Positions 1 through 11,493 of a stretch of DNA of 23,414 nt are shown piece by piece. Source of the DNA: Promethearchaeota archaeon (GTDB taxonomy: Archaea > Asgardarchaeota > Lokiarchaeia > Sigyniarchaeales > SOKP01); NCBI GenBank assembly GCA_048939995.1, contig JBHLOY010000023.1:1-23414 (forward strand), given 5' to 3'. The translations under genes were made by a program, and so were the position numbers. The notes below the pieces were generated by a model. It did not search any database, was not told the DNA's origin, and saw only the letters and a list, made by a program, of their open reading frames with translations. The first letter of the stretch is position 1; each line of letters begins with the position of its first letter.

Positions 1-797
<797 letters not shown>

Positions 798-1958: not shown

Positions 1959-3338
1959 ATGCCATATTTTATTTTAAACGGAATAGGATTTCACTGTAGT
2001 CATAATAAACAAGATTGTCCTAGAAAGCTTAACTCATGCCATCAATGTATAAGAAATAGATTAAGTGAAATGGGATTTGAAATTGATTCAGAATTTAGGA
2101 TTTTTGAAATTGAATCTGATGAAAAACATTTAAAAATAGAAAGAGAACAGATATGGCAGAAATTTTTGGATGTCCTAAATATAAAACATATTTTAATTAT
2201 GGATAAGGATTCAGGATTGCCTATCTTGAATTATGCTGTTTCTGGAGTAGATCTAGATGTAGGATTACTAAGTGGATTCATTCAAGCAAACATTACTTTT
2301 TCTGAATCAGAGGAGGTATCTTCTAATAAATTTAATTCAGCTATAGAACATTCTTTTTATGAATTTCAGTATAAGGATTTTAATATCTTACTAAGAAATG
2401 GAGAGTATATTAGGATCTGCTTAATCCTTGATACTAAAGCCTCAGATAATATGAGATATCAAATTATTCAATTTTTATATGAATTTGAGAATACTTTTGA
2501 AGATGGTTTAATTGCTTTTAAAGATACCGGAGCTATAGAATTTGATGAAATGATTGATTTTATCATCAAAATGTTTAACGTAAATCTTGTTTTTCCAATG
2601 AATTTAACTAAATCAATTCCCCCTTATGAGATTGAAAATATTAATAAAAATTCTATTCAAAAAGCTGTTTATAATTTAGCTAATGAGCTACTTCTCTCGA
2701 AACAATTCTTCTTTATTAATAAATTACTAGATAAGGTAAAAAAAATAGTAAATATTGATGCAGATATAATCCTTTATGAAATAAATAAACTTTTAGAACG
2801 AAATATTATAATATCCACCAAACCTGAAGTTGTTATCAATAGAATTGAAACAGATTTGCAAGTAAATGACAAAAAGATCAATGCAATTAAATTTATATCT
2901 TCACTAATCAATATAGATAGTGATTTTAAGCAGCTAAAAGAAGAAATTGATTTAAAAAACGAATTTTCTGCGAAAAAACTCCTTAAAGGATTTATCAAAA
3001 AGGCAAAAATTGCTGAAAAAGATCTGGCTTTCCAAATAGCTCATAAAGAATATACTAAGGCTCTTTTTATTGCTAAAGAGCTAGAATTAAAGGATGAAGT
3101 CAATAGAATTTCTAATCTATTGTTTCAACTTGATTACAATAGTAAAAAAGTTGAATTAGATTTTGTATTAGAAATGGCTGAAAATTATGAGAAAAATAAG
3201 GATTACATTAATAGTATTCACTATTATCAAAAAGTAATAAAGATTCTTGAAAGTTTTCTTATTTATAATATTGCAGATGCAGATTCTCAACTAAAGAAGC
3301 TAAGGAAAAAAATTATCAAGTTGAGAGAGGAATTATAA
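1959..3338 (+). CDS. Multidomain protein: Cys/His-rich N-terminus, longin-like domain, helical (winged-helix-like) middle, TPR/MIT-like helical C-terminus
   Basis: HILIMDKDSGLPIL...LLSGFIQANITF...FYEFQYKDFNILLRNGEYIRICLIL...FLYEFENTF follows the Asgard longin-like pattern; C-terminal AENYEKNKDYINSIHYYQKVIKIL looks TPR-like. Confidence 0.6.
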   Translation: MPYFILNGIGFHCSHNKQDCPRKLNSCHQCIRNRLSEMGFEIDSEFRIFEIESDEKHLKIEREQIWQKFLDVLNIKHILIMDKDSGLPILNYAVSGVDLDVGLLSGFIQANITFSESEEVSSNKFNSAIEHSFYEFQYKDFNILLRNGEYIRICLILDTKASDNMRYQIIQFLYEFENTFEDGLIAFKDTGAIEFDEMIDFIIKMFNVNLVFPMNLTKSIPPYEIENINKNSIQKAVYNLANELLLSKQFFFINKLLDKVKKIVNIDADIILYEINKLLERNIIISTKPEVVINRIETDLQVNDKKINAIKFISSLINIDSDFKQLKEEIDLKNEFSAKKLLKGFIKKAKIAEKDLAFQIAHKEYTKALFIAKELELKDEVNRISNLLFQLDYNSKKVELDFVLEMAENYEKNKDYINSIHYYQKVIKILESFLIYNIADADSQLKKLRKKIIKLREEL

Positions 3339-4275: not shown

Positions 4276-4755
4276 TTGATAAAATGTTATTTTTGTAAGG
4301 CTATTATTCAAAACATCCCTTATAGATGTAAATACTGTGGTCTTTTGTTTTGTAATAAACACAGAATTCCAGAAAATCACTCTTGTCTGTTTGATCTAAA
4401 AATAAAATTTGAAAAATTGATTTATGAAGATGCACTAGATTTTGTGGAACAAAAATTAACTGTAGCTAAAATTTATGAGTATGTAACGAAAAAAGAGTTG
4501 AGTAAAGAGGAAGCATTAAAATTACTTAACTTTTTTATTGAATCTAGCTCAAATATAGATAATCGCATAAATAGTTTAACTGCTTTTGGCCTACTGAACC
4601 TGAACTCTGAGGAATCATTTAAAGTTCTCGAAAATTGTTTAATTTCAGATGAAAATCATGAGGTAAGAAGAACAGCAGCGAAAGTTTTATTAAAACTTTT
4701 TGCAAAAAAAAGTGAAGCATTAATAAACTATGCTCTAAATCAAAAATTAATTTAA
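4276..4755 (+). CDS. AN1-type zinc finger protein with C-terminal HEAT-like repeats (TTG start)
   Basis: CYFC-x10-CKYCGLLFCNKHRIPENHSC matches the AN1 pattern; LENCLISDENHEVRRTAAKVL is HEAT-like. Confidence 0.8.
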   Translation: MIKCYFCKAIIQNIPYRCKYCGLLFCNKHRIPENHSCLFDLKIKFEKLIYEDALDFVEQKLTVAKIYEYVTKKELSKEEALKLLNFFIESSSNIDNRINSLTAFGLLNLNSEESFKVLENCLISDENHEVRRTAAKVLLKLFAKKSEALINYALNQKLI

Positions 4756-5424: not shown

Positions 5425-5856
5425 ATGACAATTGAAGTATTAAAGCTTAATAACCAAAAAAGTAGCTTTCTGCAAAACTTATGGATAATTGAAAAAGGGT
5501 CAGGTATTTGTATTTTTGAGAAGAATTTTGAAAAACATAAAAAAATTAAATTCTCAAATAACTTGATATGTGGTTTCTTTTCTGCAATTTCTATGCTTGC
5601 GTTAGAGGTGTTTGCAGAAAGAATTTCTCACATTAAATTTTCAAACTGTAAATTAACCTTTAAGCATACGAAGAATTTTCTATTCATTTTCAGAATACAA
5701 AATCAACCTTCTCCAAGCACTTACAAAATAAATGATTTAATAAATGAAATCTCAAAGATGTTTGTTGATTTATATGATAACTCATTTCAAAATTGGAATA
5801 GGGATATTCGTCAATTTAAATCATTCTCTCATGATTTAGAAAATAAATTGTATTGA
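5425..5856 (+). CDS. Stand-alone longin-like (profilin/roadblock-like fold) protein
   Basis: LWIIEKGSGICIFEK...LICGFFSAISMLALEVF..ISHIKF...FLFIF...EISKMFVDLY...W; same pattern as the domain in 1959..3338. Confidence 0.65.
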   Translation: MTIEVLKLNNQKSSFLQNLWIIEKGSGICIFEKNFEKHKKIKFSNNLICGFFSAISMLALEVFAERISHIKFSNCKLTFKHTKNFLFIFRIQNQPSPSTYKINDLINEISKMFVDLYDNSFQNWNRDIRQFKSFSHDLENKLY

Positions 5857-5977: not shown

Positions 5978-6487
5978 ATGAAAAAAACCGTAAAAATTGT
6001 TGTTTCTGGAGATGGAGGTGTTGGAAAGACATCATTCTTAAATCGATTAGTATATGATTTCTTTAATGAAAGTAATGAGTTGACTAAGGGTGTTGATTTT
6101 TATTCCAAGATAATACAGGTTAATGGAACAGAATTTAATTTTGTATTATGGGATCTTGCAGGTCAATCACAATTTAAAGAAATATTGGATGATTTTGTAG
6201 AAGGTTCCATCGCTGCATTTGTCCTTTTTGATCTCTCTAGAATTAGTACAATTGATAGCGTTTATAAGTGGATAAATAAACTAGGAGAATGGGGAAACAT
6301 TCCAATCATAATTTTAGGTACGAAATATGATTTAGTTGATCTAAAAACTTGCACTTTGTTAGATGAGTATATCTCAAATCTTTTAAGCTCTAATCAGAAC
6401 ATAATTGAATATCTAAAGATTTCATCTAAAAAAGGTCTTAATATAAATCTAGCCTTTAATTTGCTGCTTATGAAGCTAAGCCAATAA
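5978..6487 (+). CDS. Ras-superfamily (Rab-like) small GTPase
   Basis: G1 GDGGVGKT, G2 TKGVDF, G3 WDLAGQ, G4 variant TKYD, G5 SSK; no C-terminal Cys prenylation motif. Confidence 0.92.
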   Translation: MKKTVKIVVSGDGGVGKTSFLNRLVYDFFNESNELTKGVDFYSKIIQVNGTEFNFVLWDLAGQSQFKEILDDFVEGSIAAFVLFDLSRISTIDSVYKWINKLGEWGNIPIIILGTKYDLVDLKTCTLLDEYISNLLSSNQNIIEYLKISSKKGLNINLAFNLLLMKLSQ

Positions 6488-7707: not shown

Positions 7708-7780
7708 GCCAGAGTCGCTTAGATTGGTCGAGCGACAGCCTGCAGAGTTGTTAACGGGAGTTCAAATCTCCCCTCTGGCT
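7708..7780 (+). tRNA. tRNA-Cys (anticodon GCA), intronless, CCA not encoded
   Basis: Acceptor GCCAGAG/CTCTGGC; D arm GCTT/GAGC; anticodon stem ACAGC/GTTGT with loop CT-GCA-GA (7742-7744); T arm GGGAG-TTCAAAT-CTCCC; discriminator U73 (Cys identity element). Confidence 0.95.
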
Positions 7781-7858
7781 CTTAAGCACCATAATTATCT
7801 CTAGATAGGTTTTGGTTTTTTCAAAAGATTTATCAAAAGGTCTTAGTTATTTGAACTT

Positions 7859-8998: not shown

Positions 8999-10624
8999 AT
9001 GGCAGAAGAGTATGATTATCTTTTTAAATCGATTGTTGTAGGGGATGGTGGTGTAGGTAAGACAGCATTAACACTTAGATTTTCGAAAGGATTTTTTACT
9101 GAAGATTATAAAATGACAATTGGTGTAGATTTTCATGTTAAGACAATTTCAATAGAAACAGCCGAGGGTTCAATTAAATGCAAATTACAATTATGGGATA
9201 CCGGAGGACAAGAAAGATTTAGTTCAATCAGACCTATGTATTATCGAGGTTCTTTAGGAGCTGTTTTAGTTTTTGATCTTACAAATTCCTCAAGTTTTGA
9301 ACATCTTCCTCAATGGATAGAAGAAGTGCGGGCTAATATAAAAGCTGAAATACCTCTATTACTTGTAGGGAATAAAAGCGATTTAATAGATCAAAGATCA
9401 ATTTCTATTAAAGAAATCAATAATTTCACAAGGGATTTCAACCTTTATTATATGGAAACTTCAGCTAAGACTGGTGATGGAGTTGGAGATTGTTTTTATA
9501 TTTTGGCATGTCTTATGATTGGTTCTGGAGTACCTGAAAAACTAATAGCAAATGAAACTATTTTTAGTCCTGGAAGGATAACTTTAGAAGAAACTGGTGC
9601 AATAACCACTCCCCAACCTGAAATTGATTATACAGCGCCACCAGTACCAGAAACTCTCTCAATAAAGCCAAGTGATGCCCCAGATATGTTTGAAAGCCAA
9701 CCAGAAATGGATTATGCAGCACCTCCAGTTCCAGAACCTACCACAATCAAGTCACCAAAACCTCCCGAGATATTTGAAAACCAATCAGAAATGGATTATG
9801 CAGCACCTCCAGTTCCAGAACCTCCTACTAGTTTTTCTGAAATAAATTTACCTAAACAGAGTGAAATTGAATTCAAAACTCCTGAAGAAATTTTATCCAA
9901 ACAGTTAGTTGAACCACAACAAGAGTTACAGTTTAATAATTTTGAGACTATAGAGACTGAAACATATAAACCCAAAAATATCCCTTTTTCCCCTTTCACA
10001 GCTCAACTAACTAAAGCACCTGAAGGTTTCTCATCTACAGAAAGAACAGAGAAAGAACTCCCCTCTAAAGCACCTTTCCAAGTAGTTAAAAGAGAAGAGC
10101 CTACTAAACCCAAACCTGCTTCAATGACATTCGAATCTCCAGCAAATGAGCTTCAGGGGACACAAACTTTACCCTCAACACCACAAGAATCAAAGAGTCA
10201 ATCTCTCGTTGACTATATGCCTCAAACAATTTTATCAAAAAAAGAAAAAAAAAAGAAAGAAAAGAAAAAGAAAGAAAAAAAGAAAAAAGAAAAGAAAGAA
10301 TCATTTCTAGAAATAACGGGATCAACCTCATTATTTCAAACCTTAACTCAACGAACCGGAGAAATAACCGAAGAAAAAACAATCACCTCCCCTCCTTTTG
10401 TTGCAACTAAGAAACTTGAATCAGAAGAAACATCAAAATTAAGGATTATACCAAATATTGCCGAAACCGAAACTCAACCAATTGGATTTATGCCAATAAC
10501 ACCTTCCTTTAGTGAAAAACAAAATGAGCCTTCAAAATCACAAGAATTATTAGTATGTAAACAATGCGGAGCTGTATTATCATCTGATTATGCATTTTGT
10601 AATAAGTGCGGAAGTAAGCTTTAA
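8999..10624 (+). CDS. Rab-like small GTPase with a long low-complexity C-terminal extension and terminal zinc ribbon
   Basis: YDYLFK, GDGGVGKT, TIGVDF, KLQLWDTGGQERF, YYRG, LVFDLT, GNKSD, ETSAK; then Pro-rich repeats, poly-Lys, and CKQC-x10-CNKC. Confidence 0.92.
   Translation: MAEEYDYLFKSIVVGDGGVGKTALTLRFSKGFFTEDYKMTIGVDFHVKTISIETAEGSIKCKLQLWDTGGQERFSSIRPMYYRGSLGAVLVFDLTNSSSFEHLPQWIEEVRANIKAEIPLLLVGNKSDLIDQRSISIKEINNFTRDFNLYYMETSAKTGDGVGDCFYILACLMIGSGVPEKLIANETIFSPGRITLEETGAITTPQPEIDYTAPPVPETLSIKPSDAPDMFESQPEMDYAAPPVPEPTTIKSPKPPEIFENQSEMDYAAPPVPEPPTSFSEINLPKQSEIEFKTPEEILSKQLVEPQQELQFNNFETIETETYKPKNIPFSPFTAQLTKAPEGFSSTERTEKELPSKAPFQVVKREEPTKPKPASMTFESPANELQGTQTLPSTPQESKSQSLVDYMPQTILSKKEKKKKEKKKKEKKKKEKKESFLEITGSTSLFQTLTQRTGEITEEKTITSPPFVATKKLESEETSKLRIIPNIAETETQPIGFMPITPSFSEKQNEPSKSQELLVCKQCGAVLSSDYAFCNKCGSKL
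9611..9823 (+). repeat. Intragenic tandem repeat, 84-nt (28-aa) unit, about 2.5 copies (three copies of the core motif)
   Basis: CAGAAATGGATTATGCAGCACCTCCAGTTCCAGAACCT identical at 9702-9739 and 9786-9823; diverged copy from 9618; core E[IM]DY[TA]APPVPE. Confidence 0.92.
10238..10300 (+). repeat. Pure-purine tract encoding KKE(KKKKE)3KKE
   Basis: 63 nt of only A/G; 16 Lys and 5 Glu with a 5-residue period. Confidence 0.9.
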
Positions 10625-10659: not shown

Positions 10660-11493
10660 TCAAATAGATTTTCCACAAATTGGACAAGTACTCCACATCT
10701 TTTTTATTTTCGAATTACAATGAGGGCATATTCTTAAATCGGGATCGATTTGAGTCTGTGGTGTTCCGAAGATAGTCAAATTTTTTTCAACTTTATAATC
10801 TATAGGCTTTATAGGTGGTCGAATAAATGAATCCCTTGAAATCTTTTTCTCCTTATCTAAATTCGCAATAGGGCTAATAACTTTCAAATTATCGGCTTTA
10901 TGAGGAGTTATAGAATCGTTTAAACCAATTGATTCTTTTATTAAGGGTGGATGGGCTTCAACTCTCATCTCGTCAGAGGAGTCATATTCTTTAGCTTCCT
11001 TCCCAGACTCAAGTCTTTCCTCTTTAAATGTGCTTGTTCTTTGTAGCATTTTTTCAGTCATTCCGACATTATAAAGATAATAGTTGCCATCATTATTCTC
11101 AATTACTTTCTCTCCATTAATTAAACTTACTTCAATATAATAAATTACTAAAGAACCAATTGGTACTTCTGCTATTTCAGCAATAAAGTAATCTAATTGG
11201 TTCTCCATTTTCATTTGGTACCATGACTTACCATGATCTGCACTAAAAACTAACTTTACTTGTTCTAGTTTATTATCAAAATCTTCTTCTGTAATTTTTA
11301 CAACTATCTTTATTGTTTTCTTTTTTAGTTCCCCGGATTCCTCTATTTCTTCTGCTTCTGACTCATCCCATGCAGCTCCACATTTTGGACAATTTGTAAA
11401 CCAATTAGGATATTCAAGTTTACAATTAGAACATGTTTTCGTGAAGTATCGTGTTGTTTTTATTCCCAGTGTTTTTTTTTTATTCTTAGCCAT
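10660..11493 (-). CDS. Protein with N- and C-terminal zinc ribbons flanking an Ig-like/beta-sandwich domain and a low-complexity linker
   Basis: CSNC-x10-CPKCG and CPHC-x10-CPICG; central VKLVFSADHGKSW..M...FIAEI..P.G..VIYYIEV...ENNDGNYY beta-rich pattern. Confidence 0.7.
   Translation of the reverse strand: MAKNKKKTLGIKTTRYFTKTCSNCKLEYPNWFTNCPKCGAAWDESEAEEIEESGELKKKTIKIVVKITEEDFDNKLEQVKLVFSADHGKSWYQMKMENQLDYFIAEIAEVPIGSLVIYYIEVSLINGEKVIENNDGNYYLYNVGMTEKMLQRTSTFKEERLESGKEAKEYDSSDEMRVEAHPPLIKESIGLNDSITPHKADNLKVISPIANLDKEKKISRDSFIRPPIKPIDYKVEKNLTIFGTPQTQIDPDLRICPHCNSKIKKMWSTCPICGKSI

Follow-up and report, generated by a model that had tools for sequence, protein, structure and literature searches.

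The published exemplar of the archaeal Rab-like GTPases is KKK40223.1 (Lokiarch_53190, Lokiarchaeum GC14_75), a lokiarchaeal protein in which all five RabF motifs are present (Surkont and Pereira-Leal, 2016, PMC4915359) and which is classed as RasL in the supplement of the ArfR paper (bioRxiv 10.1101/2024.02.28.582541). In the former study only the G domain was modelled, and the group was said to have no C-terminal extension, polybasic region or other membrane signal. A slow intrinsic GTPase activity was measured for a Rab of Thorarchaeota (PDB 7EZB), and that report concludes that the Thor and MK-D1 Rabs are without a C-terminal extension (Tran et al., 2024, PMC10933270). To the question of how Asgard Rab-like GTPases localise without prenylation, both papers thus answer that there is no C-terminal extension.

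The window analysed here, a stretch of 23,414 nucleotides, carries at 8999..10624 (+) a 541-aa Rab-like (RasL) GTPase gene whose product has a disordered tail and a terminal zinc ribbon, as delineated by the open reading frame, Pfam and AlphaFold2. The gene is genuine and its architecture is the one described by a previous sequence-only reading; a frameshift or fusion artefact is excluded, since 120 homologues are full-length. The host is an Asgard archaeon of the Lokiarchaeia: orthologues lie mostly in Promethearchaeota records, and the window also contains archaeal 23S rRNA (the 3' part of the gene, 1-795 (+)). The G domain (residues 1-176; 8999..9526), defined by motif match, Pfam and fold, has a Pfam Ras match on residues 10-170 (E 1.7e-52). 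Near matches to all five RabF motifs, a Rab-family feature, and the YDYLFK N-terminus are all located at the expected positions, as the earlier reading had it: YDYLFK at 5-10, IGVDF at 41-45, KLQLW at 62-66, RFSSIR at 73-78, YYRGS at 81-85 and LVFDLT at 90-95. G1, G3, G4 and G5 are intact in the window GTPase, and G1-G5 are intact in 94-95 of the 95 orthologues. Among the 78 Ras-family matches of its own genome the protein is the top scorer, and all five RabF patterns occur in only one other of them, a 240-aa paralogue (L130:5095-5814; C31:66094-66813) whose tail is short and Pro-rich and whose C-terminus is basic.

No orthologue (0/95) ends in a CC, CxC or CaaX prenylation motif. Together with the intact G motifs, this supports the notion of a prenylation-independent Rab-like switch. 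Helix 5 is followed by a conserved folded extension (residues 173-192; 9515..9574 (+); pLDDT 75-91), in which M173, P179 and G192 are invariant in the alignment and which is also retained by several tail-less paralogues. In the AlphaFold2 model (pTM 0.41), residues ~50-195 (pLDDT mostly 70-94) and 515-541 (~88) are folded; the tail is mostly below pLDDT 50, the G domain with its extension to residue 192 and the ribbon are the only folded parts, and there is no compact arrangement. Repeats, Lys block and ribbon were all located in this long, probably disordered tail.

As far as its sequence could be compared, KKK40223.1 is an orthologue with a near-identical N-terminus and G domain, and continues into two APPVPEP repeats, FKTPEEIL, KPK..PF and the start of the Lys-rich block, the sequence compared stopping before the ribbon. 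The published generalisation of a short C-terminus with no polybasic region does not describe the window protein, which has a 365-aa tail with a Lys block, and KKK40223.1 breaks it as well. Among Lokiarchaeia, it is the most Rab-like GTPase that bears this tail of conserved motifs, so the no-extension generalisation is wrong for its own exemplar. The Thorarchaeota structure 7EZB shares with the window protein an Asgard RasL G domain, RabF motifs and the lack of a prenylated Cys (E 1.5e-40) but, unlike it, is a tail-less protein of 182 aa. A literature search covering few subscription journals found no paper describing the tail. The architecture is thus real, conserved and apparently undescribed, and it is built on a known protein: the novelty proposed earlier holds for the tail, but not for the G domain, which is that of the published exemplar.

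With respect to eukaryotic Rabs, the best sequence matches among solved structures are Rab30, Rab8A and Rab1 (E ~1e-44), and Rab1, Rab8, Rab30 and Rab43 share all five RabF-like motifs and are also the best solved matches by fold (Z 13-14, tied with Ras). Two careful trees, however, place the eukaryotic Rabs in a clade of their own (96/49 and 94/87) and the window protein among Asgard RasL. In the tree sets the Rabs are Cys-terminated sequences from metagenome contigs and Rho/Ran are giant-virus stand-ins, with no true Ras; long-branch ciliate-like Rabs, redundant orthologues and most genome paralogues were left out. Tail-less RasL proteins of other classes are nearer the Rabs than the window protein is (mean identity up to 43% vs 39%). 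Forcing the window group and the Rabs together costs 14.6 lnL and is not rejected (p-AU 0.229). The closeness to Rabs put forward by the sequence-only reading holds for the RabF-like motifs but is not supported by the position of the G domain, a grouping which that reading had itself named as counting against it, although the AU test still allows Rab sisterhood. The trees agree with the published finding that Rabs have no specific sister among Asgard sequences (bioRxiv 10.1101/2024.02.28.582541). As judged from its Ras-type G1-G5, its orthology to a RasL sequence and its branching among Asgard proteins, the window protein is an Asgard RasL, or archaeal Rab-like, GTPase. The missing prenylation feature keeps it outside the Rab family; for REP/GDI, only a 41-position match to PF00996, under the cut-off, was obtained in this 98% complete genome.

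The tail contains three Y-x-APPVPE repeats, with APPVPE starting at residues 213, 241 and 269, a period of 28 aa or 84 nt. Repeat 1 (9620..9652), E-x-D-Y-x-APPVPE, and repeat 2 (9704..9736), 28 aa after it, are defined by conservation and shuffle enrichment, and repeat 3 (9788..9820) is the best conserved copy in the alignment. They are followed by a conserved EFKTPEEIL motif (9863..9895) with a short predicted helix at 295-300 in the AlphaFold2 model, a conserved KPK-x-IPF motif (9965..9988; 73/95 orthologues, shuffle mean 0.4) and, at the family level, a SLVDYMP motif before the charged block (10202..10222). Behind the block comes a triad: SLFQTL (10328..10351), a short hydrophobic helix-type motif identified by enrichment and profile; PF (10391..10399), F-x-PF in most orthologues, with P466 and F467 nearly invariant; and KLRIIPN (10436..10456), supported by alignment, enrichment and profile. 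All these elements lie on the + strand.

These elements are conserved in orthologues. The 95 orthologue tails contain 205 copies of the pattern [YF]xAP[PD][VI]P, vs 0-1 in shuffles, and the EFKTP, KPK-x-IPF, LFQTL and LRIIP types are also enriched in these tails, which come from distinct but related genomes, so that the counts express enrichment over composition and not independent events. Repeat copy number ranges from 0 to 5 with the core retained, 28 residues being the most frequent spacing. Among the 120 homologues (541-665 aa), motif cores are 80-90% or more conserved and spacers mostly 10-30%. In 40 diverse full-length forms, [FNIV]PF was counted 86 times (15 in shuffles), phi-P-x-[VI]-P 49 times (8) and LxxTL-type motifs 27 times (6). 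The most constant parts of the tail are the ribbon, the PF motifs and, outside one lineage, the ordered triad LxxTL / F-x-PF / LxIIP; five of seven sister-order-type tails score above all 50 of their shuffles on the pre-ribbon profile. The lineage with the cultured species has diverged, with NPF, WFAP and WGFM motifs, and on the triad profile its tails score no better than shuffles. A search with Atlas features of residues 400-541 returned only generic zinc-ribbon clusters (<0.8). The conservation of these elements makes docking sites in the tail likely, in line with the earlier proposal, the partners being candidates only.

The repeats might also link the switch to ESCRT, if their phi-P-x-V-P pattern were MIM2-like and recruited Vps4 or other MIT-domain proteins. 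MIM2-like motifs have been reported in Asgard ESCRT-III (PMC7240154). The genome's own Vps20/32-type ESCRT-III has MPEVP near its C-terminus, a Vps4 with MIT domain is encoded, and the pattern, with the variants PDVP, IPPVP and IPEVP, is found in 92 of the 95 orthologues (232 vs 14 in shuffles). However, only 24 of the 40 diverse forms have it, and no ESCRT gene was recognised near the locus in the neighbourhood survey. The MIM2 consensus has a large aliphatic residue first and no preceding aromatic one, whereas here the first position is usually Ala and a conserved aromatic precedes it. We therefore consider this route improbable. A complex prediction with the Vps4 MIT domain and tail residues 259-303 scored 0.01, which gives no verdict and counts neither way. 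As a separate observation, vps4 (L161:1972-2223, - strand; C13 near 103096) apparently starts at ATC behind a GAGGT ribosome-binding site, and in seven genomes of the genus this ATC lines up with the ATG, TTG or GTG at which other orthologues start; automatic calls would thus lose half of the MIT domain. Among other possible motif receptors, no EH, SH3, WW or adaptin-ear domain was found in the genome with Pfam models, control genomes being mostly silent too, and there is a weak profilin match.

The Lys/Glu block (residues 414-434; 10238..10300 (+)) has 16 K and 5 E, net +11 in 21 residues, and is a shortened, not universal form of a longer K/E-rich segment, which between its flanking motifs measures 37 aa here vs a median of 66 in 23 orthologues. 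It was proposed previously that the protein carries its own membrane anchor, and by analogy with K-Ras4B or Rit/Rin the tail could act as a direct, lipid-free anchor, with the block and the nearby hydrophobic motif binding anionic archaeal lipids. In line with this notion, the best 20-residue window has a median of +8 in 95 mostly same-family orthologues, relocated blocks sit just before the ribbon, one block-less lineage has net-basic tails (+11 to +28), and the basic end of the 240-aa paralogue would fit as well. Nevertheless, the block, scored as a window of +7 or more, is present in 19 and absent in 21 of the 40 diverse forms, and its position shifts between mid-tail and just before the ribbon. 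Tail charge runs from -67 to +23 in these forms, six of which are acidic without a block or basic tail; among the 95 orthologues the median is -11, and the tail of the window GTPase is itself net -10. The cluster is net-positive but, mixed with Glu and 107 residues before the C-terminus, it has neither a C-terminal position nor conservation among orthologues, and the helical moment of the hydrophobic motif is modest (0.36-0.38). Missing in about half of the diverse forms and variable in charge, the block cannot be a universal anchor; we regard direct anchoring as unlikely, and the proposed anchor of its own is not supported as stated. Where present, the block may add electrostatic affinity.

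Basic patches and zinc ribbons are often nucleic-acid binders, and the basic segment and ribbon could conceivably bind nucleic acid or ribosomes, or the tail could be largely neutral low-complexity sequence grown by slippage: the block is encoded by polypurine runs, and ~20 proteins of the genome end in similar ribbons. Neutrality is excluded by the conservation of fixed-order motifs over two orders, and nucleic-acid binding is hard to reconcile with the absence of the block from half of the diverse forms and with the net acidic tails of the window GTPase's family. These explanations have, in our judgement, hardly any chance of being right.

The protein ends in a C4 zinc ribbon (10556..10621 (+)), recognised by Pfam, AlphaFold2 and comparison, with CxxC-x10-CxxC spacing from C520 to C537 and a conserved FCNKCG face. 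The Pfam model Zn_Ribbon_1 matches residues 520-541 with E 3e-5, slightly short of the curated threshold. All 120 homologues end in the ribbon, and the spacing is kept in 40/40 diverse forms, which were preselected for a terminal ribbon of 8-14 spacing. Its surface residues N (35/40), K (31/40) and F (37/40) are conserved far above the generic ribbons of the genome. RanBP2-type fingers bind Ran-GDP, and by analogy with them, or with the Ran C-terminal switch, the tail might be autoregulatory, the ribbon or a triad motif folding back on its own G domain in one nucleotide state. The spacing, which equals that of RanBP2/NZF fingers, the conserved surface and the co-occurrence of ribbon and G domain across two orders would be consistent with such a latch. 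However, the RanBP2/NZF consensus has a Trp two before the first Cys and an Asn four after the second, whereas these positions are mostly I, V or L in the 40 forms, and Pfam calls Zn_Ribbon_1/DZR. In addition, the linker, which spans 150-440 residues and varies freely, is long for a latch serving only intramolecular contacts, and the model lacks any compact arrangement. Autoregulation thus appears quite unlikely.

The protein has a match in 101 of the 121 genomes of the order, with top matches in long frames in three families, and tailed forms of ~360-665 aa occur throughout the order and in its sister order, where forms of 396-515 aa carry the ribbon. In the genomes searched, the tail is confined to Lokiarchaeia. 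Best matches from the remaining classes sampled mostly measure 175-210 aa, and some of them adjoin a ~580-aa gene that resembles the glutamyl-tRNA synthetase standing beside sister-order tailed forms, which suggests that the tail was gained in early Lokiarchaeia. Its single origin would follow from motif order and not from the G-domain tree, since a 55-row tree leaves the tailed groups in an open polytomy. Tailed orthologues of 517 and 588 aa lie on single-contig genomes (4,324,194 and 6,035,313 bp), presumably those of the two cultured lokiarchaea, the 517-aa one probably from MK-D1. If so, this orthologue is at odds with the statement on MK-D1 in the text of PMC10933270, whose Fig. 1f lists MK-D1 domain architectures.

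The tail has been lost in short duplicates of the window's genus, as these nest within the tailed clade; apart from the 240-aa paralogue, they measure 182-264 aa. Other arrangements were also observed. A second sister-order architecture of ~300 aa (L120:4620-5582, L513:4167-5081, L500:1483-2388), with several paralogues per genome, joins a RasL G domain to a helical hairpin, which by eye looks MIT/TPR-like, and to a zinc ribbon of another kind. In P0121, P0125 and P0136 a close G-domain copy stands behind a second GTPase or other N-terminal domains, with only the tail start kept. RasL fusions of 766 aa, with the G domain C-terminal (L143:3648-5945), and 690 aa, with a long helical C-terminal part (L144:1863-3932), also exist. 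NPF is an EH-domain ligand of eukaryotic endocytic proteins, and five or six NPF tripeptides occur in orthologue tails of one lineage (L117:6022-7836, L119:1360-3216, L469:3392-5191), motifs that the window's genome lacks. Assembly gaps inside the tail repeats split or truncate the gene in several genomes (L476, L487, L488, L469), which may help explain why the tail was overlooked.

As to the neighbourhood, a convergent gene for a 277-aa protein with a zinc ribbon, an Ig/FN3/CBM21-like sandwich, a linker and a second zinc ribbon (10660..11493 (-)) adjoins the GTPase gene in 86 family loci overall. These include 75 of the 78 GTDB loci, and the three exceptions end at contig edges. Nine loci of another family have a homologue of this gene immediately upstream of the GTPase gene and co-oriented with it; adjacency in both arrangements indicates that the pair survived rearrangement (inversion or translocation). 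The gene is not adjacent in two other lineages of the order, nor in sister-order loci. Metabolic genes are equally syntenic with the GTPase, so that linkage is a lead and not proof; by gene linkage alone, the most promising partner candidate within the order is the Ig-like/zinc-ribbon protein. Its middle domain has a confident Ig/FN3-like sandwich fold (pLDDT 88) with CBM21 as top Foldseek match (E 9e-4), generic Ig/FN3 sandwiches scoring equally, and no adaptin-ear structure is among the listed fold matches. Glycogen binding is not established, as generic folds tie and the profile also matches repeats in large Asgard proteins; the Trp that precedes DNN in starch-binding modules is replaced.

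The earlier idea that the GTPase is the core of a module within the window is not supported as stated: the longin-like genes of the window lie within 5 kb in only 3 and 13 loci, too rarely for dedicated partners, and the conserved neighbours are the candidate partner gene, a small GTPase within about 5 kb in 58 loci, and metabolic genes. This small GTPase (5978-6487 (+)) is long-branched, with TKYD at G4. The longin-like genes, recognised by eye, lie at 1959-3338 (+), with weak MIT/TPR matches at its end, and 5425-5856 (+); an AN1-type zinc finger fused to HEAT repeats (4276-4755 (+)) and a tRNA-Cys gene (7708-7781 (+)) complete the observations.

Taken together, these findings lead us to favour, by a modest degree, a GTP switch on a tail that docks proteins multivalently and tethers it to a protein assembly. 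A vertically inherited Lokiarchaeia RasL GTPase, with one tailed copy per genome, would act as a tethered switch or scaffold: its RabF/switch surface would engage regulators and effectors in a GTP-dependent manner, as Rabs do, and its tail would dock other proteins multivalently through the variable-number repeats, the ribbon and, between them, the LxxTL / F-x-PF / LxIIP triad. Such docking could keep the switch, without lipid, in a protein assembly, probably one at the cell cortex, with the K/E block as an optional charged spacer or electrostatic helper and not an essential anchor. In this regard, the nucleotide-binding and catalytic motifs are all kept, and short hydrophobic or proline motifs persist in fixed order within fast-changing spacers; the change of motif vocabulary between families and the persistence of tail-less duplicates in the genus count against this reading, as do the lineages in which the candidate partner gene is not adjacent and the equal synteny of unrelated metabolic genes. 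A broader proposal, which we hold as doubtful, is that Lokiarchaeia run a eukaryote-style short-linear-motif network, in which an endocytic-accessory-like tail (PF/NPF, MIM2-like repeats, basic segment) would couple GTP state to membrane ESCRT or coat-like machinery, as a lipid-free equivalent of the Rab hypervariable region in both cultured lokiarchaea.

The switch with its docking tail would offer a case of short-linear-motif signalling in archaea, and its apparent presence in both cultured lokiarchaea makes localisation and pull-down tests feasible. Confined to Lokiarchaeia in the genomes searched, the tail is probably a parallel solution to the Rab hypervariable region and not its ancestor, so that its weight for eukaryogenesis is limited. 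Extensions of the G domain by basic, proline-rich or regulatory segments are familiar from the polybasic ends of Rit/Rin and K-Ras4B, the Ran C-terminal switch and the large Rabs (Rab44, RASEF, CRACR2A). These are analogies only: the basic block of the window protein is internal and optional, the large Rabs are prenylated with their extra domains N-terminal, and none of these proteins is known to end in a C4 ribbon. Eukaryotic Rabs, for their part, have the prenylated Cys and fall in a separate clade, and the tail of the window protein is about ten times longer than theirs and ribbon-ended. The protein would thus be Rab-like in action without being a member of the Rab family, its targeting tail replaced by a scaffold.
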